Shown here piece by piece: positions 20,150 through 44,112 of a stretch of 64,000 bases of DNA; the stretch's first letter is position 1; each line of letters starts with the position of its first letter. A program made the position numbers and the translations under genes. This stretch comes from an uncultured Clostridium sp. GTDB lineage: Bacteria; Bacillota; Clostridia; TANB77; CAG-508. The notes beneath the pieces were generated by a model. The model was given only the letters and a program-made list of their open reading frames with translations. It searched no databases and was not told where the DNA came from. The stretch covers positions 11,155 to 75,154 of the forward strand of contig CANTGH010000002.1 of assembly GCA_947653235.1 (NCBI GenBank), given 5' to 3'.

Positions 20150-20170
20150 AAATTACAAAAACTTACAAAC

Positions 20171-20199
20171 TTGACATAATTTTAAAAATATGATATAAT
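20171..20199 (+). promoter_or_regulatory. Consensus sigma-A promoter TTGACA-17-TATAAT upstream of ftsE
   Basis: Perfect hexamers with 17-nt spacing, followed by the conserved aaaag..gggg motif. Confidence 0.5.
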
Positions 20200-20406
20200 A
20201 AAAGTTAGGGGATTTGTTTGGGAAATAACGAAAAAAGTTATTTCCTTTTTTTATTTAAAAAATTTTTAAATAAAAAAAGGAAAATTGAGAAAATAGAAGA
20301 AAATCATAAAAAAATATCAAAAAAAGGCAAAATATAGTATTGCATTTATTTTAATTTATTGATATGATAGATATGTATTATACAAATCGAAAAGGGAAAT
20401 TTTAGA

Positions 20407-24472: not shown

Positions 24473-25684
24473 ATGGGATCGTATGAAAGAAAACAATTAA
24501 TTTATAAATTTATATTAGGACTTGTATTTGTAGCATGTCTGACAGCTGTTATAACATTTTATGCAACTTCTGGCATAGTAGGGCAAAGCGATTTTCCCAA
24601 AATAAGAGAAGTAGGCGAAGACTCAAAAGAAAATATCAATACAATTGCGACATCCTTAAAAGATTTTAGAAAATTAATTGATCAATATTATATTGGTGAT
24701 ATTGATGAACAAAAAGTGATGGATGAAACCATAAAAGGTTATATTAATGGTTTAGATGATGAATATTCAGAATATATGACAGCTGAAGAATGGGAAGAAT
24801 ATCAAATCAATACATTAGGAAATTATGTGGGAATTGGTATTTATATGGCACAAGATAATAATAATAATATTGTTGTAGTAGAACCGATTGAAGAATCTCC
24901 AGCAGCAGAAGTTGGATTAAAAGCAGGTGATTTAATTGTAGAAGTCGATGGAGAAAATGTGACAGGGCAAGATTCGGCAATGGTTTCTTCTAAAATTAAA
25001 GGTCAAGAAGGCACAAGTGTCAATTTAAAAATTAACCGAGATAGCCAATATATGGATATGAATGTAGAAAGAAAAGCGATTAAAGTATATCATGTCAAAA
25101 ATCAAATGTTAGAAAATAATGTAGGATATATCAAACTTGCTACTTTTGATGAAGGTTGTAGCAATGAATTTCAAAACGCTTTTGAAGAATTACAAAAACA
25201 AGGGGCGCAAAAACTAATTCTTGATTTGAGGGATAATACAGGAGGATTAGTTGATGAAGCACTAAATATTGCAGATATGATGGTTCCCAAAGATAAAACG
25301 ATGTTAATCACAAAAGATGCGAAAGAAAACAAAGAAATAACAACAGCCAAACAAGAAGCCATAATCGATATGGATATAGTTGTTCTTGTGAACGAATATT
25401 CAGCAAGTGCTTCTGAAATATTGGTTGGTTGTTTGAAAGACAATCAAGAGGCTACAGTGGTTGGAAAAACAACTTATGGAAAAGGTGTTATTCAAAATGT
25501 ATTTTCTTTATCAGACGGAAGTGTTTTAAAACTTACTACAGCAGAATATTTTACACCCAATGAGACAAAAATCAATAAAGAAGGTATTAAACCAGATATT
25601 GAGATAGATTTAATAGATGAACCAGAAGGGCAAGAAGAAATAGATGAACAATTGAATAAAGCGTTAGAAGTGATAAATCAATAG
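24473..25684 (+). CDS. ctpA: Carboxy-terminal processing protease (S41 family, PDZ domain)
   Basis: PDZ (GLKAGDLIVEVDG) and S41 catalytic region (SASASE...TYGKG). Confidence 0.8.
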   Translation: MGSYERKQLIYKFILGLVFVACLTAVITFYATSGIVGQSDFPKIREVGEDSKENINTIATSLKDFRKLIDQYYIGDIDEQKVMDETIKGYINGLDDEYSEYMTAEEWEEYQINTLGNYVGIGIYMAQDNNNNIVVVEPIEESPAAEVGLKAGDLIVEVDGENVTGQDSAMVSSKIKGQEGTSVNLKINRDSQYMDMNVERKAIKVYHVKNQMLENNVGYIKLATFDEGCSNEFQNAFEELQKQGAQKLILDLRDNTGGLVDEALNIADMMVPKDKTMLITKDAKENKEITTAKQEAIIDMDIVVLVNEYSASASEILVGCLKDNQEATVVGKTTYGKGVIQNVFSLSDGSVLKLTTAEYFTPNETKINKEGIKPDIEIDLIDEPEGQEEIDEQLNKALEVINQ

Positions 25685-25692
25685 AAAAAAGG

Positions 25693-25745
25693 AACAAGTT
25701 CTCATCAGAAGGATATTTTGGATGAGAACTTACTTTTTTAGAAAA
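25693..25745 (+). terminator. Rho-independent terminator after ctpA
   Basis: aagttctcatc...gatgagaactt hairpin followed by a T-run. Confidence 0.45.
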
Positions 25746-25891
25746 GAATACATAAAAAATTAAAATTAACTATTGACTTTTTGAAAATATTTTGTTATAG
25801 TAATATTATTCTAAAACAACATGGGGATTGTTGAAGAAATTAATTTTTGCAATGAAAATGAAGTTTCATGGTTGAAAATTTTATATTTTAT

Positions 25892-25965
25892 GCAGGTATA
25901 GTTTAGTGGTAAAATAAAACCTTGCCAAGGTTTAGTTACGAGTTCGATTCTCGTTACCTGCTCCA
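25892..25965 (+). tRNA. tRNA-Gly (anticodon GCC)
   Basis: Cloverleaf folded by hand: acceptor GCAGGTA/TACCTGC, anticodon loop TTGCCAA, T-loop TTCGATT, CCA encoded. Confidence 0.85.
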
Positions 25966-26034
25966 ATAGGGAAGTTCTTGTATTAGAAAATAGTCTAGTA
26001 TGGGGGCTTTTTAAGTTGTGTTTTTTGTAAAAAC

Positions 26035-26063
26035 TTGACAATTTTATGTAAATGTGGTATAAT
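26035..26063 (+). promoter_or_regulatory. Cassette promoter TTGACA-17-TATAAT (spacer attttatgtaaatgtgg)
   Basis: Perfect consensus hexamers. Lies inside the roughly 100-bp conserved post-core segment. Confidence 0.55.
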
Positions 26064-26116
26064 AAAATAAGGATAATTATATTGTAAAATAGAAAATAAA
26101 GAAAGGAGACATAATT

Positions 26117-26584
26117 ATGTCAAAATTTACAGTTTATATTAATTCAGACCATTTTCAGTACTTGGTGAATTTAGTGCACATGTATGACCATGAACGGTTT
26201 GTCTGCTTAATGGGAAATGTAGAAAAGATTGACGACAGAAATGCCATCGTTATTAAGGAAATGCAGGTTTTGGACGATAACGATTACGAGGGTATGTATA
26301 CAACACTCTGCAGACCTAAAAAGTCTGTTATCGAACAAATGATGCAGAGACTGAAGCAAAAAAAGTATTCGGTTTATATCGAGTACCATACACATCCGTT
26401 GGATTACCCGCATTTTTCTGAAACAGATAAAGTGGATGAAAAGAAGATGTGGAATTGGTTCCACACAGTGTTTCCAAATAAGTACTATGGAAATATGGTG
26501 CTGGATATCAATGCTTGTGGGCAGTCAGTCATTAGAGATTGGCATAATGGAGAATTGCAAGAATTCGACGTTATTCCATATTAA
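26117..26584 (+). CDS. JAB/MPN+ (JAMM) metalloprotease-like protein, RadC-like
   Basis: EYHTHPLDYPHFSETD matches the H-x-H-x7-S-x2-D JAMM motif. RBS AAAGGAGA. Cargo gene of cassette 1. Confidence 0.55.
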   Translation: MSKFTVYINSDHFQYLVNLVHMYDHERFVCLMGNVEKIDDRNAIVIKEMQVLDDNDYEGMYTTLCRPKKSVIEQMMQRLKQKKYSVYIEYHTHPLDYPHFSETDKVDEKKMWNWFHTVFPNKYYGNMVLDINACGQSVIRDWHNGELQEFDVIPY

Positions 26585-26724
26585 ATACCAAGAGGGGATA
26601 TATCAATTGATAGTCTCCTTTTTGGTTATAAGAAATTATATTTTAAAACTTATTTACTCAAATTTGGTATAATTTTATACCATAAATAACCACCTGCATA
26701 TTATTCATTTAATTAGTAACAATT

Positions 26725-26999
26725 AACCTCAATATAGATAATCAATTCTATGCCTAGTAATCACTTAAAAAATTCCCTTTCTACCACTCAAAATTATAGA
26801 ATGCATGAGTGATGCATACAAAATGCATGTGTCTTAAAATCCGTATGATACGAGAAATAATAGAGAGTTCAAGCCCCAATTACCCCAAAATTTGAGAAAA
26901 ATACCTTGTAAATGCATTGTAATTCTAGTAGTATAATTTTCTTTAAAGCAGAAATAGCAAGGTTATGATGTCTTACAGACAAATTACCTGCTCCAATAG
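26725..26999 (+). repeat. Conserved cassette end-block, copy A (about 275 bp, ends in the tRNA-3' core)
   Basis: Highly similar (an estimated 80-85% identity) to 27923-28205. Contains ATGCAT palindromes and a degenerate tRNA-like stretch (gcagaaatagcaaggtt...ttacctgctcca). Confidence 0.6.
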
Positions 27000-27063
27000 G
27001 GAAGTCATTGTATTAGAAAGAAGTCTAGTATGATGGCTTTTTTGTTGTGTTTTTTGTAAAAAC

Positions 27064-27092
27064 TTGATAATTTTATGTAAATATAGTATAAT
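27064..27092 (+). promoter_or_regulatory. Cassette promoter TTGATA-17-TATAAT
   Basis: Second copy of the post-core promoter module (spacer attttatgtaaatatag). Confidence 0.5.
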
Positions 27093-27165
27093 ATAAATAG
27101 ATTAAGTGCTAAGTGCTAAGTGCCTTTATCTGATAATCTACTATAAAATTTTAGGAGGTATTATT

Positions 27166-27750
27166 ATGCGGAGAAAGATTGATGAACTGTTAGCAAAATG
27201 CAAGGCAGTACCTTTTTCAGAACCAGTTTTCTACAAAAAGCCACTTGAAGAAGATGCTTTCTACAAAGTAATGCATCAGCAATTCAAGTTTCCCAGTGGT
27301 GATGTTATTAGACGCGAGTTTATGACAAAGAATCCAGCAGCAGTAGTTGTACCTGTGACAGCTGACGGAAATGTTGTCTGTGTAATCCAGCCAATAGCTT
27401 TGTCAGCGGAAGGCTCTCTTATTGAAGTTCCAGCAGGATATGCAGAAGACAATGAGAATTCTGCTCAGACCGCTATGAGAGAACTGGTCGAAGAGACAGG
27501 GTATGTTCCAGTTGAAGTCAAATATCTTGGTAAGCATTATCAGGATCCGGGCAGTATCAAAGAACCTGTAAATGTTTTTGTTGCACTGGGATGTGACAGA
27601 AAACATGAACAGAAACTTGATAAGGATGAATTTATCACAACCTTGGAAATTCCTAAGGATGAGGTAAAAAGCTTGATGGATGAAGGCGAGATTAAGGATG
27701 CTAATACGTTTATTGCATTGGCAAAGGCTCGACTGGCAAACTACATTTAA
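27166..27750 (+). CDS. NUDIX hydrolase (ADP-ribose pyrophosphatase-like)
   Basis: Nudix box GYAEDNENSAQTAMRELVEETGY. GGAGG RBS before ATG 27166. Cargo gene of cassette 2. Confidence 0.7.
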   Translation: MRRKIDELLAKCKAVPFSEPVFYKKPLEEDAFYKVMHQQFKFPSGDVIRREFMTKNPAAVVVPVTADGNVVCVIQPIALSAEGSLIEVPAGYAEDNENSAQTAMRELVEETGYVPVEVKYLGKHYQDPGSIKEPVNVFVALGCDRKHEQKLDKDEFITTLEIPKDEVKSLMDEGEIKDANTFIALAKARLANYI

Positions 27751-27922
27751 CTATTTTTCATTAACCGCAAAAAGGGAGACTGTAGTACGACATTGTGTTG
27801 TGCCACAGTTTTCTTTTTATAGTAAAAAGAAGTTAAATTTTGAAACTGCTTTACTCATAATTTGCTCATTTTAGTATATAACTAACAGTTTATTTATTAT
27901 TTATATAGTAAATAAAGAACAG

Positions 27923-28205
27923 TAACAATTAACTCCAAAATAGATAATTACTCCTATAGGCAATAATCAATCAAAAAAATTCTTTTCTACCACTCAAAAT
28001 TATAGAATGCTATTTGTGATGCATTAAAAATGCATATGTTTTAAATTCCGATGATACGAGAAATAATAGGAAGTTTAACTCAAAATTACCTAAAAATTTA
28101 AGAAAAATACCTTGTAAATGCGTTGAAGTTCTGTTATATATGAATTGTTTAAGGCAAAAATAGCAAACTTGTAATGACCTACAACCCAATTACCTGCTCC
28201 AATAG
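27923..28205 (+). repeat. Conserved cassette end-block, copy B
   Basis: Paralog of 26725-26999. Ends in the third copy of the core ttacctgctccaatag. Confidence 0.6.
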
Positions 28206-28382
28206 AGAAGTCATTCTATTAGAAAAAAGTCTAGTGTGGTGAATTTTTATTATTATATCAATAATATCTATACCAAGCCACCCAAAGGGTGTCTATTATT
28301 ATGTTCGAAGTAAAAAAAGAAAGATATATATAATTAAATTCTATAAAAAAACTATCCATGGTGGTCTGGATAGTTCTCTTCA

Positions 28383-28616
28383 TCAAAATGACATATCATC
28401 AGATATAGTCATAGTATCAGCAATTCTGTCAATATAAGCAGTTATATATAAAGGGGTATCGTCTTCAAGAAAAACGTACAAACAAACCTTTTTATCTCCG
28501 ACATGATTAAATTTAGTGTTTTTAACATTTTTATTGTATTGCTTTTTGATTTCTTCGGATATTTCTCTTATAATCCGCTTTTTTTCACTTGGAAATAAAA
28601 TATTTATACTTATCAT
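28383..28616 (-). CDS. Hypothetical 77-aa protein (cassette 3 cargo, inverted orientation)
   Basis: GGAGG RBS on the minus strand. Consensus promoter TTGACA-17-TATAAT on the minus strand at about 28700-28730. Terminator hairpin ctatccatggtggtctggatag at about 28350-28375. Confidence 0.45.
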   Translation of the reverse strand: MISINILFPSEKKRIIREISEEIKKQYNKNVKNTKFNHVGDKKVCLYVFLEDDTPLYITAYIDRIADTMTISDDMSF

Positions 28617-28825
28617 ATAAAACCTCCTAAATTATTAGTTTGAAATTTATTAAAGCAACCACCATGCAATAATATAATGACTTGATAAAATTCGTCATTA
28701 CCTATATTATATTACATTCAACATAAAATGTCAAATTTTTTTTTCTTATTACTCTTATTTGGCTATTTTAATTATAAATAACCAATCATTTATTTGATGG
28801 CTTTTAGTTGTGTTTTTATAAAAAC

Positions 28826-28854
28826 TTGACATAATCACAAAAATATGATATAAT
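28826..28854 (+). promoter_or_regulatory. Terminal copy of the cassette-type promoter TTGACA-17-TATAAT
   Basis: Near-identical to the ftsE promoter region. Followed by the terminator hairpin at 28882-28913. Confidence 0.45.
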
Positions 28855-28881
28855 AAAAGGTGGGGGAAAAATAAATAAAAA

Positions 28882-28913
28882 AGAAATCATTTTTTAAGTG
28901 ATTTCTTTTTTTT
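28882..28913 (+). terminator. Rho-independent terminator (agaaatca...tgatttct plus T8)
   Basis: 8-bp perfect stem and U-tract, about 25 nt downstream of the promoter at 28826-28854. Confidence 0.45.
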
Positions 28914-29053
28914 AAGAGAAATATGGTAATTTGTCAACCTTGTCATGATAAATTGACGAATTTTGAAAAAAAATAAAAATAGACTTGAAAAATATGTCGA
29001 CTAATGATAGAATAAAACCATTGTTGTAAAGATAGAAAATATGAGGTAAAAAA

Positions 29054-30949
29054 GTGGAAAAAATTAAGAAATTGAGCCGTTATAGAGATATTATATTGAT
29101 AATTTTAGATTGCTTTTGTATTGTATTTGCATATTATTTAGGAACTGTGCTCATCACCGATTCAGTACTTTGTTTTTCAGATTATTATTCCAAGCGATTG
29201 CTAACATCGATTATAGGGTATATTTTCATTTATGAAATCATTTTTCATATTGCCAAAAGGCATAAAAGTATCATTCGTTATGAAGATGGCAAAGATTATA
29301 TTATTTACATTATCTTGTGTTTACTAACTGCTTTAATACTTGCTGTGATGAAAGCAATTTTTCATATCAATGTAGCGACTGTGAAAATGAACCTTTTGGC
29401 GGCGCTTATTATTGCAATGATGATGGTAGCGTATCGCATTGTAGCTAGATATATTTTGGTGAGTGATGTTATCAATAAAGGTTTGCTAACAAAATCCAAT
29501 AAAATCCAGAAAAAGTTGCTTATCATTGGTGCTGGAAATGCGGCTCATGAGATTATTAAGACCATTCATACTAATTTTAAAGAAGATTACGAAATTGTAG
29601 GAATTATTGATGATAATACGAAAAGACTAAATTTTTCAGTTTCAGGAGTTAAAATTATTGGAAATCGAAACGATATTATAAGAATTTGTAAAGAAAACAA
29701 AGTTGATTTGATATTTTTCTCCATTGCGAAAATTGATAATGAAAATAAGAAAGAAATTTTAAATATTTGTCAGCAAACGCAAGTTAAAGTCAGAGTTTTA
29801 CCAGGAATTCGAGAAATTATCAATGATAAAGATATTTTTGATAGTTTACGCGATGTTGAAATCGAGGACATTTTGGGAAGAGAAGCAGTAAAATTAGATA
29901 ATGAAAATATTGAGCAATTGCTTCATAACAAAACGATTTTAGTCACAGGCGGTGGCGGTTCAATTGGGTCGGAGCTGTGTCGACAAATTGTGAAATATAA
30001 GCCAGAAAAATTGGTGATTTTGGATATTTATGAAAATAGTTTATATGATGTTGAACTTGAGTTAAAAATGAAATATCCTCAAATTAAGATTGACGCTGTG
30101 ATAGCGAGTGTTCGTGATAAAAAACGTTTGACTGAAATTTTTCGAACGTATCATCCAGATTTAGTGTTTCATGCAGCGGCTCATAAACATGTTCCGTTAA
30201 TGGAAAATAGTCCATTGGAGGCCATTAAAAATAATGTGTTTGGAACCTATAACGTAGTCAATAGTTGCGATGAGTTTCAGGTGAAAAAGTTTATTTTGAT
30301 TTCGACCGACAAAGCAGTTAATCCAACGAATATCATGGGGGCGACGAAAAGAATGTGCGAAATGTTGGTACAAGCCAAAAATAAAGTTAGCCAAACAGAA
30401 TATGTTGCGGTTCGTTTTGGCAATGTTTTGGGAAGCAATGGATCGGTTGTGCCGTTGTTTAAGAAACAAATTGCCAAAGGTGGACCAGTCACTGTGACAG
30501 ACAAAGAAATTACGCGCTTTTTTATGACCATTCCAGAAGCGGTCGAGTTGGTTTTGCAAGCAATGACTTATGCCAAAGGAGGCGAAATATTTGTCCTTGA
30601 CATGGGAGAGCCTGTGAAGATTTATGATTTAGCAGAAAGTTTGATTAAGTTATCTGGATTGGTACCAAATCGAGATATTAAAATTGAAATAACGGGCTTA
30701 AGACCAGGTGAGAAGTTGTATGAAGAAATTTTGATGAACGAAGAAGGACTTGAAAAAACAAGACATGACAAAATTTTCGTAGCAGAACCGATGGAGATTA
30801 CGATGGAAGAGATTGTGGAAAAGTTGGGTAAATTTGAGGAGTTGTTGGAGAGGAAAGCTATTTCAATCACAGAGGTAAAGCAAACGATGAAACAAATTGT
30901 ACCGACGTTTCAAGAGCCCAATCATGTCAATGAAAGGAAAGAAGAATAG
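29054..30949 (+). CDS. Membrane-bound UDP-sugar 4,6-dehydratase (CapD/PglF/WbpM family)
   Basis: N-terminal TM region plus Rossmann motifs (IIGAGNAA and TGGGGSIGSEL) and an SDR-extended catalytic domain. Confidence 0.8.
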   Translation: MEKIKKLSRYRDIILIILDCFCIVFAYYLGTVLITDSVLCFSDYYSKRLLTSIIGYIFIYEIIFHIAKRHKSIIRYEDGKDYIIYIILCLLTALILAVMKAIFHINVATVKMNLLAALIIAMMMVAYRIVARYILVSDVINKGLLTKSNKIQKKLLIIGAGNAAHEIIKTIHTNFKEDYEIVGIIDDNTKRLNFSVSGVKIIGNRNDIIRICKENKVDLIFFSIAKIDNENKKEILNICQQTQVKVRVLPGIREIINDKDIFDSLRDVEIEDILGREAVKLDNENIEQLLHNKTILVTGGGGSIGSELCRQIVKYKPEKLVILDIYENSLYDVELELKMKYPQIKIDAVIASVRDKKRLTEIFRTYHPDLVFHAAAHKHVPLMENSPLEAIKNNVFGTYNVVNSCDEFQVKKFILISTDKAVNPTNIMGATKRMCEMLVQAKNKVSQTEYVAVRFGNVLGSNGSVVPLFKKQIAKGGPVTVTDKEITRFFMTIPEAVELVLQAMTYAKGGEIFVLDMGEPVKIYDLAESLIKLSGLVPNRDIKIEITGLRPGEKLYEEILMNEEGLEKTRHDKIFVAEPMEITMEEIVEKLGKFEELLERKAISITEVKQTMKQIVPTFQEPNHVNERKEE

Positions 30950-30951
30950 CG

Positions 30952-32076
30952 ATGGGAAAAATTTATTTGGCTTCTCCTCACATGTCAGATGAAGGATATG
31001 AAAAACAATTTGTAAAAGAAGCATTTGAAACCAATTGGATTGCACCGTTGGGGGAAAATGTAAATAATTTTGAAAAAGAAGTCTGTGCCTATGTTGGAAT
31101 TAAAAATGCTGCTGCTTTGACGAGTGGTACAGCAGGAATTCATTTAGGTTTAAAAGCTCTTGGGATGCAAAAAGAAGATGTTGTTTTTTGTTCTTCGCTT
31201 ACTTTTTCAGCTAGTTGTAATCCGATTTTATATGAAAATGCAACCCCAGTTTTTATAGATAGTGAGCCTGAAACGTGGAATATGAGTCCACAAGCTTTAG
31301 AAAAAGCGTTTGAAAACTATTCTCCCAAAGCTGTAATTGTTGTTCATTTATACGGACATGCTGCTAAAATGGATGAAATTATGGAAATTTGCAATCGACA
31401 TCAAGTACCAGTTTTAGAAGATGCAGCAGAAAGCTTAGGAACGACTTATCAGGGGAAATTTACTGGAACATTTGGAAAATATGGTGTGTTTTCTTTTAAT
31501 GGCAATAAGATTATTACGACAAGTGGAGGCGGAATGGTTGTATCAGACGATGAGAAAGGTATTGAAAAAATCCGATTTTGGGCAACGCAATCTCGTGATC
31601 AAGCACGTTATTATCAGCATTCAGAAATTGGTTACAATTATAGAATGAGTAATGTTTTAGCAGGAATTGGAAGAGGACAGCTGAAGGTTTTGGAAACGAG
31701 AATTGCTCAGAAAAATGCTATTTTTAGGACTTATCGAAAAGCATTTGAAGATATTCCAGAAATTCAAATGCATGAGATAAAAAACGAAGAAAGAACCAAT
31801 AATTGGTTGTCGGTTATGACTGTGAAAGAAGGTTCAAAAGTAAAACCAATGGATATTATTGAGGCTTTAGAAAAAGAAGATATTGAAGCAAGGCTTGTTT
31901 GGAAACCAATGCATTTACAGCCGATATTTGAAAAATATGATTTTTTTAAGCATGATGAAGGAAGAAAAAGCATAGCAGAAGATATTTTTAATCGTGGTGT
32001 TTGTTTGCCATCTGATACGAAAAATACAAAAGAGGATATGGATAACATAATTCAAATCATCAAAAATCTATTTTAG
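30952..32076 (+). CDS. DegT/DnrJ/EryC1/StrS-family sugar aminotransferase (PglE/EpsN-like)
   Basis: PLP-dependent fold; the usual PLP-lysine motif appears as SFNGNK. Confidence 0.75.
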   Translation: MGKIYLASPHMSDEGYEKQFVKEAFETNWIAPLGENVNNFEKEVCAYVGIKNAAALTSGTAGIHLGLKALGMQKEDVVFCSSLTFSASCNPILYENATPVFIDSEPETWNMSPQALEKAFENYSPKAVIVVHLYGHAAKMDEIMEICNRHQVPVLEDAAESLGTTYQGKFTGTFGKYGVFSFNGNKIITTSGGGMVVSDDEKGIEKIRFWATQSRDQARYYQHSEIGYNYRMSNVLAGIGRGQLKVLETRIAQKNAIFRTYRKAFEDIPEIQMHEIKNEERTNNWLSVMTVKEGSKVKPMDIIEALEKEDIEARLVWKPMHLQPIFEKYDFFKHDEGRKSIAEDIFNRGVCLPSDTKNTKEDMDNIIQIIKNLF

Positions 32077-32086
32077 TGGAGAAACT

Positions 32087-32794
32087 ATGTATCAAAAATA
32101 TGTTAAGAGAATATTAGATTGTATATTGAGTTTAGTGGGGTTGATAATGCTCTCACCGATATTTCTACTACTAGCGATTTTCATCCGAGTAAGATTGGGA
32201 AGTCCTGTTATATTTCAGCAAAAAAGACCTGGAAAAGATGGTAAAATTTTTGTTTTATACAAATTTAGAACCATGACCAATCAAAAAGATGAAAAAGGAG
32301 AACTACTTCCAGATGAAGAAAGATTGACCCAATTTGGTAAGTTTTTAAGAAGTACGAGCTTAGATGAATTGCCGGAGTTAGTGAATATTTTGAAGGGAGA
32401 TATGAGTATTGTCGGGCCAAGACCACAACTAATCAAAGATATGGTGTTTATGAATGAAGAACAAAATAAGCGTCATTTAGTAAGACAGGGACTAACGGGT
32501 TTGGCACAAATTAATGGAAGAAATGCAATTACGTGGGAAGATAAGTTGGAATATGATTTGGAATATATCAAGGATATTACTTTTTGGGGAGATGTAAAAA
32601 TATTTTTGAATACGTTTCAAAAGGTATTGAGTAAACAAGATGTTGTAACAGAAGGAATGGAGACGGCAGAGGATTTTGGCGATTATTTGTTGCGAACAAA
32701 ACAGATTACAAAAGAAGAATATGATGTAAAGAATAAAAAAGCAATTGAATTGTTAAAAGAAAGAAGTGAAGAAAATGATCGTATCAAAAAATAA
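32087..32794 (+). CDS. Initiating undecaprenyl-phosphate sugar phosphotransferase (PglC/WbaP-C-terminal-like small sugar transferase)
   Basis: Single N-terminal TM plus the conserved bacterial sugar transferase region (KFRTM...DELP...GDMSIVGPRP). Confidence 0.8.
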   Translation: MYQKYVKRILDCILSLVGLIMLSPIFLLLAIFIRVRLGSPVIFQQKRPGKDGKIFVLYKFRTMTNQKDEKGELLPDEERLTQFGKFLRSTSLDELPELVNILKGDMSIVGPRPQLIKDMVFMNEEQNKRHLVRQGLTGLAQINGRNAITWEDKLEYDLEYIKDITFWGDVKIFLNTFQKVLSKQDVVTEGMETAEDFGDYLLRTKQITKEEYDVKNKKAIELLKERSEENDRIKK

Positions 32795-33812
32795 AAATAA
32801 CACTAAAGTATCTTTAATTGTTCCATTATATAATGAAGAACAGTATATAGAAGGATTTATTGATTCAATATTAGCACAAGAATATGATTTTAATGAAATA
32901 GAAATTCTTTTTATTGATGGTAATTCAAAAGATAAAACAGTAAAAATTATTAATGAAAAATTAAAAAGTAGTGAGATAAATTATAAAATACTGAATAATT
33001 CAAAAAAGATAACGCCAATTTCCTTGAATATGGGAATTAAGGAAGCACAAAACGATATTATCATAAGATTAGATGCACATAGTCAATATCCATCGAATTA
33101 CATAGAAAGATGTGTGTATTACATTAACTGCACAGATGCAGACAATGTAGGGTGTCCGATTAAAACGGAAAGTAGTGGAAAGATAGGAAATGCAATTGCT
33201 TCTGTTTTATCTTCCAAGTTTGGAGTAGGAAATTCAAGTTTTAGAACTGACAAGACAAGTGGTTATGTGGATACTGTTCCATTTGGAACGTTTTATAAAA
33301 AGTTATTTGAAAAAATAGGATATTTTGATGAAAGATTAGAACGAAATCAAGATATTGAAATGAATCGTAGAATATTGAAAAATGGTGGAAAAATATATAT
33401 GTTTAACGATATAGAGTTAATCTATCATCCACGTGATACAATAAAAAAATTGGCTAAAATGGCTTTTAAAAACGGAAAATGGAACATATATACCAGTTAT
33501 ATTGTACCAGGAACTTTAAGATTAAGGCATTTTATTCCATTTATATTTTTTCTATCCTTAATGGTTGGAATTTTATCTATCATATTAAAAATTGGTTGGA
33601 TAAGTGTATTATTTGCAATGGAAATAATAGCGTATTTTGTACTGAATTTATTATTTAGTTTTAAGGGTGGAAAAGAAAAATCATTTGGAGAAAAATTATT
33701 GTGTTTGATAATTTATCCTATATTCCATATAACGTATGGTATGGGAACGTTTTTTGGAATATTTTTTATTTTAAAAAGTGAAATATGGAATATACAGGAG
33801 GAAAAAATATGA
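32766..33812 (+). CDS. Family 2 glycosyltransferase with C-terminal TM helices
   Basis: SLIVPLYNEE and DGNSKD (DxD-like) motifs. Confidence 0.7.
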   Translation: MKKMIVSKNKNNTKVSLIVPLYNEEQYIEGFIDSILAQEYDFNEIEILFIDGNSKDKTVKIINEKLKSSEINYKILNNSKKITPISLNMGIKEAQNDIIIRLDAHSQYPSNYIERCVYYINCTDADNVGCPIKTESSGKIGNAIASVLSSKFGVGNSSFRTDKTSGYVDTVPFGTFYKKLFEKIGYFDERLERNQDIEMNRRILKNGGKIYMFNDIELIYHPRDTIKKLAKMAFKNGKWNIYTSYIVPGTLRLRHFIPFIFFLSLMVGILSIILKIGWISVLFAMEIIAYFVLNLLFSFKGGKEKSFGEKLLCLIIYPIFHITYGMGTFFGIFFILKSEIWNIQEEKI

Positions 33813-34897
33813 AATATGCATTAATTGGATGTGGCAGAATTTCGCCCAATCATTTGGAAGCAGCTATTAACAATAAACTAGAAATCGTTGGGTTGTGTGA
33901 TTTGGTGCCAGAGCATATCAAAATTTTATTGCAAAAACTAGAAATGGAAAAAGAAAATTTTCCTGAATATGTAGATTATCATCAAATGTTACAAGAACAA
34001 AAACCAGAGTTGGTAGCCATTGCTACAGAAAGTGGAGAACATACCCAAATTGCTTTGGATTGCTTAGAAGCAGGCTGTCATGTGATTATTGAAAAGCCAA
34101 TTGCACTGTCTTTGGAAGATGCTGATAAAATCATTGCGAAAGCAAAAGAAAAAGATTTGGTGGTATGTGCCAATCATCAAAATCGTTTTAACAAATCGAT
34201 TCAGAAAATTCGAGAAGCAGTTGAAAGTGGCGATTTTGGAAAAATGTTGTATGGCACAGCTCATATTCGTTGGAATCGTGGTCCCGAGTATTACAAACAA
34301 GCACCATGGCGAGGAACGTGGGCGCAAGATGGTGGCGCACTTATGAATCAATGTATTCATAACATTGATTTATTAAGATGGATGCTAGGAGATGAGATAA
34401 CAGAAGTTTTTGCTTATACCGATAACTTAAATCATGATTTTATCGAAGCAGAAGATTTAGGTTTAGCGATTATCAAATTTAAAAATGGCTCTTATGGCAT
34501 GATAGAAGGTACTACGAATATTTATCCGAAAAATCTAGAAGAAACTTTATATTTATTTGGACAAAAAGGAACTGTAAAAGCAGGTGGAAAATCGGTGAAT
34601 ATCATTGAAGAATGGTGTTTTGAAGGCCAGACCGAAAATTCAGAAGAAGTTAAAGCAAAAAACAGCGAAATGCCTCAGAACGTGTATGGGTTTGGACATA
34701 CGCCGCTTTATCAAAATGTTATTGAAGCGATTGAAAGTCACACCCAACCGTTGGTAGACGCGGAAGCAGGAAGAAGAGCATTAGAACTAGTGCTAGCTAT
34801 TTATCAGTCGGCAGCGACTGGAAAACCAGTAAAATTGCCATTAGAAAAATGTGCAACTATGGATTTTGTTGGAAGATTTGATAAAAAGGAAGATTAA
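33809..34897 (+). CDS. Gfo/Idh/MocA-family oxidoreductase (WbpB-like UDP-GlcNAcA 3-dehydrogenase)
   Basis: NAD-binding N-terminus MKYALIGCGRIS. AGGAGG RBS. Confidence 0.7.
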   Translation: MKYALIGCGRISPNHLEAAINNKLEIVGLCDLVPEHIKILLQKLEMEKENFPEYVDYHQMLQEQKPELVAIATESGEHTQIALDCLEAGCHVIIEKPIALSLEDADKIIAKAKEKDLVVCANHQNRFNKSIQKIREAVESGDFGKMLYGTAHIRWNRGPEYYKQAPWRGTWAQDGGALMNQCIHNIDLLRWMLGDEITEVFAYTDNLNHDFIEAEDLGLAIIKFKNGSYGMIEGTTNIYPKNLEETLYLFGQKGTVKAGGKSVNIIEEWCFEGQTENSEEVKAKNSEMPQNVYGFGHTPLYQNVIEAIESHTQPLVDAEAGRRALELVLAIYQSAATGKPVKLPLEKCATMDFVGRFDKKED

Positions 34898-34899
34898 AA

Positions 34900-36045
34900 A
34901 TGGAGTTTATTGATTTAAAATCACAATATCAAAAATTGAAACAGGAGATTGATTGCCATATGCAAGAAGTTTTAAACGACGGAAGCTATATTATGGGCAA
35001 ACAAGTGAAAATATTAGAAGAAGAATTGGCGAAGTATGTCGGTGTAAAATATTGTGCGACTTGTGCTAATGGAACCGATGCTTTGCAAATGGCTCTTATG
35101 GCACTAGAAATTACAACAACAGATGCCGTATTTGTACCAGATTTCACTTTTTATGCGACAGCAGAGGTGGTTTCACTAATCGGCGCCAAACCGATTTTTG
35201 TGGATGTAGAAGAAAGAACCTTTAACATGGACCCAGAAAAATTGGAAAAAGCCATTCAAAATGTCATAAAAGAAGGAAAATGGACGCTAAAAGCGGTGAT
35301 TCCAGTGGATTTATTTGGGCAACCAGCGGATTTTGAAAAAATCCAAAAAATTGCGCAAAAGTATGATTTAACAATAATTGAAGATGGTGCACAAGGTTTG
35401 GGTGGCGAATGCAAAGGTAAAAAGGCGTGTTCTTTTGGCGATATCGGAACGACATCGTTTTTTCCAGCGAAACCACTTGGTTGTTATGGAGATGGAGGCG
35501 CTGTTTTTACAGATGATGAAGAATTGTATCGTAAAATAACGTCAATTCGTGTTCATGGCAAAGGAGAATTCAAATATGACAATATTCGAGTTGGCATGAA
35601 TTCGAGATTAGATACTCTTCAGGCGGCCATATTGTTGCCTAAATTAAAGGCATTTCAGGAATACGAATTGGCACAAAGAAACAAATTTGCGCAAATGTAT
35701 GAACAAAAATTGAAAGATTATGTCCAAACGCCGATTGTGAAAGAAGATTTTTATAGTAGTTGGGCGCAATATACGATCCTTTTAAATTCCAAGGAAGAAC
35801 GTGATTTTGTCCAAACAAAGTTAAAAGAAGTGGGTATTCCAAGTATGGTTTATTATCCAAAGCCTTTACATAAACAAGTTGTTTATCAGACTTACGATTT
35901 TCATTTGGAGGACTTAAAAGTGAGTGAACATTTAAGTAGAACGGTTCTTAGTTTACCAATGCATCCGTATTTGACGGAAGAATTGGTGGAGACTGTTTGC
36001 AATAAAGTGATTGAAATTATAGGAGAGTTTCGAAATGGAAAATAA
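34900..36045 (+). CDS. DegT-family aminotransferase (WbpE-like)
   Basis: PLP-dependent fold. Position directly after the WbpB-like gene. Confidence 0.7.
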   Translation: MEFIDLKSQYQKLKQEIDCHMQEVLNDGSYIMGKQVKILEEELAKYVGVKYCATCANGTDALQMALMALEITTTDAVFVPDFTFYATAEVVSLIGAKPIFVDVEERTFNMDPEKLEKAIQNVIKEGKWTLKAVIPVDLFGQPADFEKIQKIAQKYDLTIIEDGAQGLGGECKGKKACSFGDIGTTSFFPAKPLGCYGDGGAVFTDDEELYRKITSIRVHGKGEFKYDNIRVGMNSRLDTLQAAILLPKLKAFQEYELAQRNKFAQMYEQKLKDYVQTPIVKEDFYSSWAQYTILLNSKEERDFVQTKLKEVGIPSMVYYPKPLHKQVVYQTYDFHLEDLKVSEHLSRTVLSLPMHPYLTEELVETVCNKVIEIIGEFRNGK

Positions 36046-36616
36046 GGAATATTTTGTCCACGAATCGAGTTATGTGGACGAGCCATGTGACATTGGGAAG
36101 GGAACGAAAATATGGCATTTTTCACATATTATGGCACATTCGAAAATTGGAGAAAATTGCAATATTGGTCAAAATGTAGTGATTTCGCCAGAGGTTGTGC
36201 TGGGAAATTGCGTAAAAGTGCAAAATAATGTTTCAATCTATACAGGTGTAGTGTGCGAAGAAGATGTATTCTTAGGGCCTTCCTGTGTATTTACAAATGT
36301 GATAAATCCAAGAAGTTTTATTGTGCGAAAAGAAGAGTTTCGAAGAACGATTATCCGCAAGGGAGCTTCGATTGGAGCCAATAGCACGATTGTGTGTGGT
36401 CATGAAATTGGTCAATATGCTTTTGTAGGAGCTGGTAGTGTGGTGACAAAAGATGTTCCAGATTATGCATTAGTGGTTGGAAATCCTGCTACCATAAAAT
36501 ATTATGTTTGTGAATGTTCAGAAAAGATGGAATTTGTAGAAAATCGTTTTGAGTGTCCCAAATGTGGTAAGAAATATAGAATAGATGAAGGAAAAGTGGA
36601 GGAAGTTGAAAAATGA
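36035..36616 (+). CDS. Hexapeptide-repeat N-acetyltransferase (WbpD-like) with a C-terminal CxxC...CxxC tail
   Basis: Left-handed beta-helix repeats, then CECSEKMEFVENRFECPKCGKKY. Confidence 0.65.
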   Translation: MENKEYFVHESSYVDEPCDIGKGTKIWHFSHIMAHSKIGENCNIGQNVVISPEVVLGNCVKVQNNVSIYTGVVCEEDVFLGPSCVFTNVINPRSFIVRKEEFRRTIIRKGASIGANSTIVCGHEIGQYAFVGAGSVVTKDVPDYALVVGNPATIKYYVCECSEKMEFVENRFECPKCGKKYRIDEGKVEEVEK

Positions 36617-37935
36617 GTATGAAAGAAAGATTAACTAAGAAAATTGAGAATAAAGAAATGATAGTTGGTGTGATTGGTTTAGGCTATGTTGGCTTGCCGT
36701 TGGCAGTTGAAAAGGCGAAAGCTGGTTTTCGAACCATTGGGTTTGATGTGCAAGATGAAAAAGTAAATTTAGTAAATGAGGGACACAATTATATTGGTGA
36801 TGTGGTTGACAGTGATTTGGAAGAATTAGTCAAAAGTGGTAAGTTGTCGGCTACGACGGATTTTAGTTTTGTGAAAGATGTGGATTTTATTGCGATTTGT
36901 GTTCCGACACCACTAGATAGCCATCAGCAGCCAGATATTAGTTATGTGAAGAGTAGTGCGGAGTCGCTTGCAAAGTATTTGACAAAGAATACAATCGTAG
37001 TGTTGGAGTCGACGACGTATCCAGGGACAACAGAGGGGTTGTTGAAGCCAATTTTGGAAAATGGCTCTGGTTTAACTTGTGGGGAGGATTTTTATTTGGG
37101 ATTTTCACCAGAAAGAGTGGATCCAGGAAATGCAGTTTATAAAACGAAAAATACGCCAAAGGTAGTTGGCGGGATTGGAAAAGAAGCAACAGAAGTGATT
37201 GCGAAGATGTACCGAGCGGTATTAGGAGCTGAAATTTATGAAGTGTCTTCACCAGCGGTGGCGGAAATGGAAAAAATTTTGGAGAATACGTATCGCAATA
37301 TCAATATTGGTTTGGTGAATGAACTGACGATGTTGTGTCATAAGATGGGAATTAGTATGTGGGAAGTTGTGGATAGTGCGAATTCAAAGCCGTATGGATT
37401 TCAGGCATTTTATCCAGGACCTGGATTGGGAGGTCATTGTATTCCGCTTGACCCATATTATTTGGATTGGAAAGCAAGAGAATATGGATTTCATACATCG
37501 ATGATACAAGCGTCTGGTATGATCAATGATAAAATGCCAGAATATTGTATAGAAAGAGCAAGTAAGATTTTGGGCAGAGCACAAAAATCAATGAATGGAG
37601 CAAAAGTGTTGGTTTTGGGTGTTGCTTATAAAAATGATATTGATGATTATAGAGAAAGTCCAGCATTGCGAGTGATTGAGCTTTTGGAACAAGAAAAGGC
37701 AAATGTGGATTGGTTTGATCCATGGATTTCAGAATATAAATATAAAGGAGAAAAACATCAAAGCAGGCTTACCAAAATCGATGAGCAGGTTTTGCAGGAA
37801 TATGATTTAGTTATGATTACAGCGGCTCATTCTAAGTTTGATTATGAGATGATTGCGAAAAATGCGAGGGCAATTTTTGATACGAGAAATGCGATGAAGA
37901 GTGTGGAGAATAGGGAGAAGATTGAGTTGTTGTAG
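36613..37935 (+). CDS. UDP-N-acetyl-D-glucosamine/mannosamine 6-dehydrogenase (WbpA/WecC family)
   Basis: GxGYVG N-terminal Rossmann motif and catalytic GGHCIP. Confidence 0.8.
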   Translation: MSMKERLTKKIENKEMIVGVIGLGYVGLPLAVEKAKAGFRTIGFDVQDEKVNLVNEGHNYIGDVVDSDLEELVKSGKLSATTDFSFVKDVDFIAICVPTPLDSHQQPDISYVKSSAESLAKYLTKNTIVVLESTTYPGTTEGLLKPILENGSGLTCGEDFYLGFSPERVDPGNAVYKTKNTPKVVGGIGKEATEVIAKMYRAVLGAEIYEVSSPAVAEMEKILENTYRNINIGLVNELTMLCHKMGISMWEVVDSANSKPYGFQAFYPGPGLGGHCIPLDPYYLDWKAREYGFHTSMIQASGMINDKMPEYCIERASKILGRAQKSMNGAKVLVLGVAYKNDIDDYRESPALRVIELLEQEKANVDWFDPWISEYKYKGEKHQSRLTKIDEQVLQEYDLVMITAAHSKFDYEMIAKNARAIFDTRNAMKSVENREKIELL

Positions 37936-37944
37936 GAGGAGAGA

Positions 37945-39027
37945 ATGAAAGTAATTATGATTTTGACGAATGGATTTGATCCAGATGTGAGAGTATATAA
38001 AGAAGCAAAATACCTTGTTTCCAAGGGATTTGAGGTAACCATTCTTTGTTGGGATAGAAAATGCGAATATTCGTCTAAAATAGAAGAGGTAGTGGATGGG
38101 ATTCAAATTAAAAGATTTGAAATACCGTCTAAACCAGGAACAGGATTTAAGCAGATTGTACCATATTTAAAGTTTATGAAGCAAGTGAGAAAATATTTGA
38201 AAGATGAAAAATATGAGTATTTGCATTGTCATGATTTTGATGGTATACTTGTAGGAATGTTGGTGAAGGAAAGAAAAAAGAAGAAACTAATATTTGACAT
38301 GCATGAAGTGTATACTCATTATGCTTATGCCAAAAATGTATTTTTTAAGAGTTGCTTTAAATTTGTTTTGAGAAGAGTAAATTACATTATTTATGTAAAT
38401 GATGAACAAATAAAAAATATTACGGAAAAAGAAAAATTAGTATTTTTACCGAATTATCCAGAAATAAAGACATATTTACCGATTGAAAAAAAGAAACAAG
38501 ATAAGATGACAATTAATTATATTGGAAGTTTGAGGGATTATACAGCTTTGAAGGCATTGGCGGATTTGGCTATCCAAAGAGAAGATTTGAAAATTGGATT
38601 ATATGGTATAGGTGTGTGCTATGATAAATTGCGAGAAGAATATAAAGATACGAGAGTTAAAGTTTTTGGAAAATATAATGGAATAGAACAAAGTGGAGAA
38701 ATTTATCGAAATACAGATATTTTATATTGTTCTTATAATCCAGAGGTTGAGAATTGGAAAAATGCCTATCCAGTAAAATTATTTGAAGCGATTGTTACTT
38801 TGACACCAATCGTTGTTTCTAAAGATACAAAGGTAGGTGAATTTGTTAGAGAAAAGGGGATTGGGGAACTTATAGAATATGGAAAGGGACAATCAATTGA
38901 GATGGCAATTTCAAAGATAATGACTCATTATGATGAATATGTTAAAAATTTGAAGAAGATAACAGATGATTATTGTTTGGAAAGAGTGATATTAAATCTA
39001 GACAAAATTTATAAGGAGAAAGGATAG
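37945..39027 (+). CDS. Group 1 (GT4) glycosyltransferase
   Basis: GT-B fold architecture, 360 aa. Confidence 0.6.
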   Translation: MKVIMILTNGFDPDVRVYKEAKYLVSKGFEVTILCWDRKCEYSSKIEEVVDGIQIKRFEIPSKPGTGFKQIVPYLKFMKQVRKYLKDEKYEYLHCHDFDGILVGMLVKERKKKKLIFDMHEVYTHYAYAKNVFFKSCFKFVLRRVNYIIYVNDEQIKNITEKEKLVFLPNYPEIKTYLPIEKKKQDKMTINYIGSLRDYTALKALADLAIQREDLKIGLYGIGVCYDKLREEYKDTRVKVFGKYNGIEQSGEIYRNTDILYCSYNPEVENWKNAYPVKLFEAIVTLTPIVVSKDTKVGEFVREKGIGELIEYGKGQSIEMAISKIMTHYDEYVKNLKKITDDYCLERVILNLDKIYKEKG

Positions 39028-40221
39028 ATGAAGAAAACAATTGTTATTTTAACCCATGTGACATTTGATGATTCGCCCTATTGTAAATATGTCCATAGCC
39101 ATGCGAAAGCTTTGGTGGAACAAGGGTATCATGTTATTGTGTTAGCGGTTATTCATTGGTTGCCCATCTTGTCCAATTTTCAAAGATATAAACAAGATTT
39201 TATGAAAAGGATTAAAAATAGCGATAAGAAACAAATCATCGATGGGGTAGAAGTGATTTATCAAAAGGCATATTCTTTTTCAAATTTATGGTATGATTCA
39301 GCTGTTAATTTGAATGGGATTTTGTATTATAAGAGTATCAAAAAGACAATGGAAAAGATTATGCAGGAAAATGAGGTTGTGTTGATTGATGCACATACGT
39401 TTAAAGTAGAAGGGTATGTTGCGTATTGCTTAAAAAAGAAGTATGCCAATATTAAGACAACGGTTACGTTGCATGGAACAAGTTTTTATAGAAATTTGAA
39501 TACTCAAAATGGAATAAAGCAGATTAAAAAGGTATTTCAAAGAGTTGATTATGCGATATGTGTGAGTGAAAGAATAAAAAAACAAATCAATGCACTTGGT
39601 GTTGAGAATACAAAAGTAGTTTATAATGGAATCAATCAATATCATTTAGAAGCTGTGGATAAGGAAGAAAATCGATATAATATTTTAACAGTAGCAGGTT
39701 TTGTTAGACGAAAAAATATTGATTTGATACTTAAATCGGTGAAAATAGTATTGAACAAGTATAAAAATGTTAAATTGACAATTGTTGGCGAAGGAATAGA
39801 AAGAGCCAATCTAGAAAAATTGGTAGCTGAACTGAAAATGACAGAAAATGTAATTTTTATGGGAGAAATACCAAATCATGAAGTACAAAAGCTAATGAAT
39901 GAAAACTACCTTTTTATTTTGACAAGTGTTGCAGAAGGGTTTGGGATTGTATATCCAGAAGCAATGCGTGCGGGTTGTATCACGATTGGGACCAAGAATG
40001 AAGGGATTGATGGTTTTCTGAAAGATGGAGAAAATGGGTTTTTAGTCAATCCAGATGTAGAAGAAATTGCGAAATTGATAAAACAAATCTATGAAGGAAA
40101 ATTTGATTTGGAAAAAATGAGAGGAAAAGCAATGGAGGCCGTTAAGGAACTAACATGGGAAAATAATGTAAAAGGATATATAGAAATATTTGAGGATAAT
40201 GATGAAAGAAAAAATAAATAA
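39028..40221 (+). CDS. Group 1 (GT4) glycosyltransferase
   Basis: EGFGIV...E motif of the GT4 C-terminal domain. Confidence 0.7.
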   Translation: MKKTIVILTHVTFDDSPYCKYVHSHAKALVEQGYHVIVLAVIHWLPILSNFQRYKQDFMKRIKNSDKKQIIDGVEVIYQKAYSFSNLWYDSAVNLNGILYYKSIKKTMEKIMQENEVVLIDAHTFKVEGYVAYCLKKKYANIKTTVTLHGTSFYRNLNTQNGIKQIKKVFQRVDYAICVSERIKKQINALGVENTKVVYNGINQYHLEAVDKEENRYNILTVAGFVRRKNIDLILKSVKIVLNKYKNVKLTIVGEGIERANLEKLVAELKMTENVIFMGEIPNHEVQKLMNENYLFILTSVAEGFGIVYPEAMRAGCITIGTKNEGIDGFLKDGENGFLVNPDVEEIAKLIKQIYEGKFDLEKMRGKAMEAVKELTWENNVKGYIEIFEDNDERKNK

Positions 40222-44095: not shown

Positions 44096-44112
44096 TAAGG
44101 AGACAAAAGAAA

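Follow-up and report, generated by a model that had tools for sequence, protein, structure and literature searches.

A hypervariable gene-cassette array behind a tRNA-Gly gene in uncultured gut Clostridia

Introduction

Little is understood of the ways in which gut Clostridia gain and rearrange small accessory genes. The question is raised in a compact form by a 64-kb stretch of contig CANTGH010000002.1 (assembly GCA_947653235.1, from an uncultured Clostridium sp.), which is the whole of the DNA analyzed and is called the window hereafter. In this window one tRNA-Gly gene is followed by short unrelated genes, set between repeats of the tRNA end. What are these units, how may they have reached the tRNA gene, and what makes them vary? 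At 25892-28911 lies a hypervariable series of miniature expression cassettes whose anchor is the 3' end of tRNA-Gly, and the family of cassette arrays to which it belongs is real and reproducible. The explanation that we favor, and to which we give about an even chance, is that a trans-acting recombinase encoded elsewhere inserted miniature units at the tRNA-Gly 3' end, after which homologous recombination reshuffled them.

Organization of the array

A first, sequence-only reading of this DNA had described a 16-bp core from the tRNA-Gly 3' end that recurs exactly at 26984 and 28190. This is indeed the case: the 16-mer TTACCTGCTCCAATAG has three exact copies in the window (25954, 26984 and 28190) against a mean of 0.02 in shuffled sequence, and none of 100 shuffles reaches three. 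The tRNA portion repeated in these cores is limited to the last 12 nt of the gene. In the alignment of junctions, this 12-nt tRNA end is nearly invariant in the copies that are not part of a tRNA, and the 40 nt that precede it are variable. The segment that follows each core is conserved as well (85-90% identity), although the length of about 100 bp ascribed to it does not apply throughout, with merely ~60 bp being present after core 3. Its first ~45 nt form a hairpin followed by a T run. The fold is specific to the RNA of the + strand, because many of the pairs are G-U and the complement on the - strand folds at merely -3 to -5 kcal/mol. A hairpin that forms on the + strand only and has a trailing T run is most readily read as an intrinsic terminator, and hairpin 1 as the predicted terminator of tRNA-Gly itself.

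The promoters lie beyond the hairpins. A perfect TTGACA-17-TATAAT promoter, initially described after each core, is found at 26035, whereas the -35 box after core 2 is TTGATA and the promoter at 28826, which is again perfect, belongs to a fourth, degenerate junction. A string in the promoter spacer, TTATGTAAA, resembles one arm of the Bacillus dif site; the second arm is missing and this candidate was dropped.

As proposed from the sequence, each unit contains one unrelated small gene, namely a Prok-JAB gene, a NUDIX gene, and an inverted 77-aa open reading frame (ORF) with its own copy of the promoter (12/12 matches). The JAB protein of cassette 1 has an intact HxHx7Sx2D motif and weakly matches the PADLOC models of the JAB protein of CBASS (cyclic oligonucleotide-based antiphage signaling system) type and of BilC, and the NUDIX protein of cassette 2 has an intact Nudix box. 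The 77-aa protein matches no family in Pfam, PHROG or PADLOC, and its single-sequence fold model (predicted local distance difference test score, pLDDT, of 71) has no significant match in PDB or BFVD. In its inverted unit, the order after hairpin 3 is a terminator, the 77-aa ORF (28616-28383) and the inverted promoter (28734-28706). The last cassette is empty, with a promoter and the ribosome-binding-site-like GGTGGGGG followed by no ORF. The full order of a unit is thus a terminator hairpin, a strong promoter, one small gene, the terminator of this gene, a constant block of ~360 bp and a copy of the tRNA-Gly end (11-12 nt). It follows from this order that each gene would be transcriptionally insulated, with one terminator ahead of its promoter and another past the gene.

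Mini-units devoid of an ORF occur at 20150-20260 and 28815-28911 of the window. Both have a strong promoter, the string ATAAAAG(G/T)T(G/A)GGGG and a terminator hairpin, and they are 88% identical over 49 nt. The latter ends the array and the former is located between dapF and ftsE, where the sequence is not conserved in locus L016 (L numbers denote loci on other contigs). Both might be empty cassettes, or else genes for small RNAs.

The constant block is non-coding and ends at the next core (26619/26627-26983 vs 27816-28189, 75% identical). A conserved block with ATGCAT motifs had been recognized before cores 2 and 3 and is present there, its length being ~360 bp and not 275 bp. Three ATGCAT motifs are spaced by 11-12 bp and a fourth ATGCRT motif lies ~75 bp upstream of the core; such evenly spaced motifs would suit a role as arm-type binding sites, for which they are candidates. 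In the fourth junction (28742-28858), where ~300 bp including the core are deleted, ~55 nt from the start of the block run straight into the hairpin's 3' arm.

Several other identities of the block were considered and rejected. The degenerate tRNA-like remnant that had been suspected in it is ruled out, the identity to the tRNA body being 26-29% and the local alignments scoring as shuffles do (p 0.06-0.97); the junction L030 J3, which has no block, agrees with this. A small ORF is ruled out by 1-nt indels between the copies. Searched at E <= 1 over 25600-29100, Rfam matches the tRNA alone, plus its antisense strand at 25 bits vs a gathering score of 65.7 bits, and no other known RNA family. 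A conserved RNA structure was also dismissed, RNAalifold supporting the terminator hairpin alone with a covariation term of -0.17. Finally, the block does not behave as a dispersed intergenic repeat of the MITE (miniature inverted-repeat transposable element) or REP (repetitive extragenic palindrome) type: the profile matches within arrays only and in one orientation, and there are no terminal inverted repeats. The features of the array are listed in Table 1.

Table 1. Features of the tRNA-Gly cassette array, in window coordinates
Feature	Position	Strand	Basis
tRNA-Gly (anticodon GCC), intact, anchor of the array	25892-25965	+	ARAGORN; Rfam tRNA model, 70 bits
Core copy 1 (final 12 nt of the tRNA plus 4 nt)	25954-25969	+	exact match
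Predicted terminator hairpin 1 with T run	25969-26017	+	RNA fold -19.2 kcal/mol, z -4.5; minus strand unfolded
Cassette promoter 1, TTGACA-17-TATAAT, conserved spacer ATTTTATGTAAATGTGG	26035-26063	+	promoter scan; promoter family common to all arrays
Cassette 1 gene, 155-aa JAMM/JAB metallopeptidase, motif HTHPLDYPHFSETD	26117-26584	+	Pfam Prok-JAB 2.4e-6
Terminator-like palindrome 3' of the JAB gene	26587-26626	+	inverted repeat search
Constant block copy 1, three ATGCAT motifs and fourth ATGCRT motif	26627-26983	+	75% identical to copy 2; profile E 1.8e-107
Core copy 2	26984-26999	+	exact match
Predicted terminator hairpin 2 with T run	26997-27049	+	RNA fold -25.9 kcal/mol, z -7.7
Cassette promoter 2, TTGATA-17-TATAAT (11/12 matches)	27064-27092	+	promoter scan
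Cassette 2 gene, 194-aa NUDIX protein, ADP-ribose pyrophosphatase (NudF) type	27166-27750	+	Pfam NUDIX 6.5e-12; PDB ADP-ribose pyrophosphatases 1e-21
Constant block copy 2	27816-28189	+	profile E 2.3e-95; junction alignment
Core copy 3	28190-28205	+	exact match
Predicted terminator hairpin 3, weaker copy	28203-28250	+	RNA fold -11.9 kcal/mol, z -2.4
Cassette 3 gene, inverted, 77-aa orphan protein	28383-28616	-	ORF call
Inverted cassette promoter, would drive the 77-aa gene	28706-28734	-	12/12 matches; inverted repeat with promoter 2
Degenerate fourth junction, left part, remnant of the block start	28742-28794	+	0/500 shuffles reach the score
Fourth junction, right part: hairpin 3' arm, T run, promoter 28826-28854	28795-28858	+	promoter scan and alignment
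Terminator-like inverted repeat closing the empty last cassette	28877-28911	+	inverted repeat search and sequence reading

Related arrays in other genomes

Further arrays were retrieved via the neighboring ctpB gene, by a metagenome scan with a 34-nt junction pattern and by look-ups of cargo homologues. At least nine array loci are now at hand, namely the window, L016, L017 (= L028), L025, L026, L027, L029, L030 and L036, of which L026 and L027 are array fragments; their hosts are uncultured Clostridia/Eubacteriales of animal guts. The junction profile reaches E values down to 1e-112 in arrays, and has no other match in the 64-kb window or in related loci without an array. The modules are thus more than a local duplication, the junction element being present in at least eight other arrays of related uncultured Clostridia, where, apart from L036 (see below), the tRNA is also intact and the cores also form the unit boundaries. 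We give almost no credence to the possibility that faulty assembly produced the array or that it is no more than a segmental duplication of local extent. The sequences do come from metagenome assemblies, whose contigs often break at these repeats, but the same arrangement as in the window is found on contigs from several independent assemblies and related arrays exist in other species.

Two different tRNA genes serve as anchors. The arrays of the window and L025 start at tRNA-Gly(GCC), and those of L016, L017, L027 and L030 at tRNA-Gly(TCC). These two genes are 73% identical and their overlap at the boundary is limited to the 11 nt TACCTGCTCCA, and the presence of the same junction at both therefore suggests that the tRNA 3' end is what is targeted. 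At least three or four chromosomal contexts are represented (3' of ctpB, the interval from the HU to the MurA gene, and the vicinity of gatCAB), and the junctions have the orientation of the tRNA in all of them.

Between species, the junction elements are conserved at 76-82% and coding DNA at 80%. This degree of conservation, equal to that of coding DNA, counts in favor of the explanation preferred here and is also one of the arguments for a quite different view, in which the constant element is itself a gene or regulatory unit: a regulated small RNA of ~105 nt made of a mimic of the tRNA 3' end and a terminator, with the ATGCRT motifs as operators, transcribed from a distal-block promoter of weak sequence (TTGTAA-17-TAGTAT), the cassettes being merely inserted between tandem copies. 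Promoter-like hexamers are present in most copies, the fourth ATGCRT motif overlaps the spacer, and the hairpin forms in + strand RNA only, all of which would fit. However, the promoter matches at 8/12 positions, below the threshold of the scan, and its -35 box is lost in L030 J2 and L036 J2. No structure backed by covariation lies 5' of the terminator, the one compensatory pair being inside the hairpin, no Rfam family is matched, and the putative RNA body consists of two unrelated-looking haplotypes. We regard this view as very improbable.

Two of the loci deserve a description of their own. The L036 array is headed (8905-8945), beside gatCAB, by a 32-nt fragment of tRNA-Gly(TCC) that retains the T arm and the 3' strand of the acceptor and has lost 1 nt, and ARAGORN calls no tRNA at this array head; it seems that the array moved to this place and took a piece of its tRNA along. 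In its hairpins, G-U pairs are replaced by A-U pairs, which yields a perfect palindrome. A deletion at 9740-9760 joins the first ATGCAT motif to sequence past the fourth ATGCRT motif, and another at 10640-10700 joins the block start to the hairpin with loss of the core and resembles junction 4 of the window. L031 (1-1640) comes from a more distant genome. Here the tRNA-Gly 3' end is followed by a different terminator and then by a 1.5-kb segment with a class A beta-lactamase-like gene, which is bounded by a ~25-bp repeat of the terminator (TTTCGTG..TCCTATAAGAACA); 3' of this segment lies a JAB cassette with hairpin, promoter and block fragments and no core.

Variation of cassette content

The arrays are not invariant between strains: cassettes are permuted between species, the L029 and L030 arrays differ, and a variant of the window's NUDIX unit exists in its own species. 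For example, the JAB cassette, homologues of which are found in the L016 and L030 arrays, is first in the window and third in both of these, and a gene for a 126-aa protein has position 1 in L016, position 2 in L017 and position 3 in L025. Both orientations of cassettes are seen, the promoter moving with its gene in each, and empty or deleted units exist among the arrays. The flanks of L029 and L030 are 98.4% identical over 9.9 kb and their cassette content is different: the place of the JAB cassette of L030 is taken in L029 by 150 bp of unrelated non-coding DNA, and the first units differ too. Locus L008, from the window's species, matches the NUDIX unit without a single difference over 1087 nt and then switches to another junction variant 75 bp before the core.

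The junctions themselves are mosaics, since for a given junction, among the 12 that were aligned, the nearest neighbor changes from one segment to the next. Junction 3 of the window, for example, is 100% identical to L008 over columns 1-255 and 70% identical to it after, where it is 100% identical to L026. Both the mosaicism of the junctions and the differences between strains are observed directly. Several rearrangement ends fall near the fourth ATGCRT motif and others elsewhere, so that this motif cannot be put forward as a single crossover site.

Integration and reshuffling

In the explanation that we favor, a unit would enter by site-specific recombination between its junction and the tRNA-Gly 3' end, with a recombinase provided from elsewhere and with the junction (block, core and hairpin) serving as an attP-like site. 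The tRNA would be kept intact, the incoming unit bringing the last 12 nt and a terminator, a step that can be read directly from the array. Repeated integration events would stack the units in tandem, with each gene insulated by its flanking terminators. Homologous recombination among junctions that are 75-100% identical would then swap, delete, invert and exchange cassettes within and between genomes. An integrase-type insertion into the tRNA is favored because of the tRNA-end repeats, the uniform orientation, the near-invariant 12-nt core and the use of two tRNAs that share 11 nt. Such repeats of a tRNA end are what integration at a tRNA gene typically leaves behind (PMC4383910).

A number of observations weigh against this explanation. 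Between L029 and L030 one stretch has been replaced by another, and no clean excision from core to core has taken place. For the 126-aa cassettes of L016 and L025, identity is 96-100% from just past the hairpin to ~190 bp into the block and 86-92% over the distal block, the core and the next hairpin, after which they are unrelated. The breakpoints that could be mapped fall near columns 125, 230, 258 and 290 of the junction alignment and none at the core. Modules with promoter, gene and terminator and no junction exist in other contexts, often near other tRNA genes (L031, L032 and L040). No recombinase was seen in the flanks of other arrays (+/-10 kb of L030 and L036, ~2-5 kb on each side of L025). 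The single metagenome scan, made with the 34-nt junction pattern, returned arrays only and no element with both an integrase and the block. Seven viral scans and BLAST against phages and plasmids gave nothing relevant to the junction or to a helper element. Finally, neither a circular form nor an empty site was seen; L008 had been considered as a circular contig, and its end overlap of only 15 nt is no evidence of a circle.

The scattered breakpoints away from the core therefore indicate short-patch homologous recombination among the junctions rather than crossover at one site. The proposal of repeated site-specific integration at the tRNA 3' end thus stands in so far as the same junction is found at two tRNA-Gly genes, and is not borne out by the mapped breakpoints, which lie off the core.

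These breakpoints lead to a model without any recombinase. One ancestral tandem duplication, which began 12 nt within the tRNA at one side and stopped where the block stops at the other, would have made the junction of block and core; unequal crossing-over would have amplified it, and RecA-type exchange via the ~400-bp junctions would have followed DNA uptake or transduction. The spread of breakpoints through the junction and not at the core is what this model predicts well, as are segments of 100% identity adjoining others of 66-73% in the same pair of elements and the deletions between internal motifs (L036 J2 and J3, window J4). No recombinase was found in the window or the flanks examined, and a fragment of the transformation gene DprA was called near the L030 array. 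What it leaves unexplained is the near-invariant 12-nt tRNA end in the non-tRNA copies as opposed to the variable 40 nt before it. Moreover, one junction is found at two tRNA-Gly genes with just 11 nt in common on the left side, a length that would not suffice for an array to be carried over to another tRNA gene by RecA-type exchange. We hold the recombinase-free model to be unlikely, while granting it a substantial minority share of the probability.

Search for a recombinase and a parent element

No integrase was found anywhere in the 64-kb window, as the first reading had stated of the units. The genes of the window that are otherwise annotated are, bar two, housekeeping or polysaccharide-synthesis genes, some ORFs being unscanned or without a Pfam match. 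Mobilization in trans had been presented as a necessity; no helper recombinase, attP-bearing element or excised circle was found, and we infer it at most.

The viral side was equally silent. Viral contigs scanned for the core with hairpin, for two block motifs and for the cassette promoter gave zero matches, and the one viral match of a short core pattern (L035) is due to chance, lying within a coding region of an unrelated virus. No relatives of the JAB protein or of the Tad4 homologue described below were found in viral contigs, and the JAB protein has no tblastn match in phage genomes either. These results bear on the possibility that the units are decayed stumps of full-size prophages or integrative elements at tRNA-Gly, of which the att arms and one moron-type gene are left, accreted in the manner of cis-mobilizable elements (CIMEs): newer elements would integrate at the tRNA and older stumps be pushed outwards. 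The core repeats do resemble attL and attR, the units show a moron layout of promoter, gene and terminator, some of the cargo has phage homologues, and there are well-documented cases of decayed elements piling up at tRNA genes (PMC5704250; 10.1101/2020.12.28.424599). However, such decay should leave heterogeneous remnants, whereas the ~20 units in nine arrays are uniformly minimal and contain no pseudogene of an integrase or structural gene, and neither the block, nor the core with hairpin, nor the cassette promoter is on any phage or viral contig. Decay of larger elements is therefore improbable in our view, and integration of units that were miniature from the start, followed by reshuffling, is retained as the favored explanation.

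Comparison with known systems

The array had been likened to an integron cassette array. The likeness holds for the array of mostly single-gene cassettes with variable content, and it ends where the defining features of integrons are concerned. As in integrons and in attC-site clusters that have no integron-integrase (CALINs), the cassettes mostly carry single genes without known function, the repeated site is homogeneous and an integrase is not adjacent, and there are occasional inverted cassettes, a gene of a toxin-antitoxin-like family and strain-variable content (PMC4889954). No intI lies beside the array in the window or the flanks examined, although CALINs lack intI by definition. The repeat is here ~420 bp long (block, tRNA core and terminator), whereas attC is a hairpin of 55-140 bp with R and L boxes; no GTTRRRY box was seen on reading the window sequence and the junction alignment, in which the only hairpin is the + strand terminator. 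Each cassette has its own promoter and terminator, unlike integron cassettes with their common Pc promoter, and the anchor is a tRNA gene. In addition, complete integrons have not been found in Firmicutes, the phylum of the array host (PMC4889954). With no intI, no attC and no shared promoter, the array is not an integron.

A closer likeness is that to CIMEs and tRNA-linked islands, for which direct repeats of the tRNA 3' end that bound the units, regeneration of the tRNA, tandem stacking and the need for a helper are described (PMC5704250; PMC4383910). Boundary repeats of the tRNA end together with an intact tRNA, and att-type sites without mobility genes, are both found here, and judged at the level of sequence the locus can be placed among tRNA-linked arrays of integrase-less elements. 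The units nevertheless differ from CIMEs in their size of 0.5-1.5 kb, mostly with one gene, in their uniform architecture and single promoter family, in a conserved junction that makes up about half of each unit and in the lack of decayed integrase or transfer genes. A parent integrative and conjugative element (ICE), integrative and mobilizable element (IME) or prophage with the same att site was found neither in the metagenome scan and the viral scans nor in the phage and plasmid collections.

The tycheposons of Prochlorococcus also integrate repeatedly at one tRNA and leave partial tRNA copies between elements, and their newcomers push older elements into the island, where remnants of cargo are left (10.1101/2020.12.28.424599). 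Unlike the units described here, which have no mobility genes, tycheposons measure several kb and have their own tyrosine recombinase and replication genes.

Phage morons are autonomous modules of promoter, gene and terminator. The array units have the same composition and carry cargo families shared with phages (the Tad4 homologue, phrog_26039 and NUDIX), but the array lies outside any prophage between housekeeping flanks, constant junctions separate the units, and one promoter family serves unrelated genes. Plasmids of Acinetobacter carry dif modules, compact sets of genes that include no recombinase gene, are bounded by 28-bp XerC/D sites in alternating orientation and are probably moved by host recombinases in trans. 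Small recombinase-less modules bounded by short sites are a feature shared with the present units, in which no dif-like site was found.

What sets the arrays apart from the described cases is the combination of ~1-kb self-expressing single-gene units, a very large conserved junction and the lack of any related complete element among those found. No description of such arrays in Clostridia was found in the literature within our search coverage, which excludes subscription journals. A bolder version of the favored explanation would see in them a dedicated gene-capture platform of gut Clostridia equivalent to integrons, in which a recombinase encoded elsewhere inserts and excises ~1-kb self-expressing cassettes at tRNA-Gly 3' ends via the ~400-bp junction and which stockpiles phage-derived anti-defense and accessory genes as a pool shared by the clade; we offer this tentatively and consider it doubtful.

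Cargo of the arrays

About 17 cargo families are represented across the arrays, including small membrane proteins and many orphans. Among them are a homologue of the anti-Thoeris protein Tad4 (5.7e-16) and a protein of phrog_26039, which has homologues of 40-46% identity in Stenotrophomonas and Klebsiella phages. With these two, the JAB protein and the ADP-ribose pyrophosphatase, part of the cargo looks like phage anti-defense genes, and the guess of counter-defense cargo made from the window is supported for that part. The 126-aa family, tried as a probe for more arrays, comprises only three clusters.

Some individual cassettes show further peculiarities. A unit of L030 (9178-9743), also present in L029, contains two genes, coding for a 94-aa protein and a 91-aa DUF4160 protein (3.5e-14). 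It ends at a core and hairpin with no constant block ahead, and immediately ahead of the core it has the same base as the TCC tRNA (GCTACC). The DUF4160 family is known from toxin-antitoxin-like pairs, and we take this gene to be one half of such a pair. In L026 (1078-1686), a 108-aa cassette gene runs into a fragment resembling the alpha subunit of DNA polymerase III, which is either a chimeric assembly or a rearrangement. The NUDIX protein has homologues of 64-87% identity, most of them on contigs of 1-5 kb, as expected between repeats that break assemblies. One homologue, 82% identical (L040), stands alone beside tRNA-Lys with the same promoter and leader, outside any array.

Other tRNA-linked genes in the window

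Two other genes of the window also lie next to tRNA genes. At 60090-60857, just 3' of a tRNA Val-Asp-Phe cluster (59375-59758), a gene codes for a 255-aa protein with a Tad4 (Thoeris inhibitor) domain as its C-terminal half (4.9e-12). Its flanks (59823-59925 and 61081-61185) are unusually long and non-coding and contain a weak direct repeat of ~100 bp (69-79% identical). The promoter and junction of the array are not used by this gene, which may be another cassette-like insertion beside tRNA genes. Directly 3' of tRNA-Glu (45882-45956), a 540-aa ATPase of SMC/AAA_15/AAA_21 type is encoded at 46087-47709; it could be a RecN-like housekeeping gene or a defense ATPase.

In some relatives (L018 and L021 were compared), ctpB is directly followed by the tRNA Val-Asp(-Phe) cluster, and the two are 33 kb apart in the window. 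From this difference in spacing it follows that the array, the polysaccharide-synthesis cluster (29054-45714) and more genes lie in a region rearranged between species.

Significance

The cargo of these arrays is a compact list of candidates for functional work (the Tad4 homologue, the ADP-ribose pyrophosphatase, the stand-alone JAB protein and the orphans), some of which may counter Thoeris- or CBASS-type immunity. If a trans-acting recombinase exists, the arrays would represent a new cassette system and a potential tool for the insertion of insulated genes at a tRNA site. If none exists, the conserved junctions alone would sustain a shared pool of cassettes in these Clostridia via homologous recombination.

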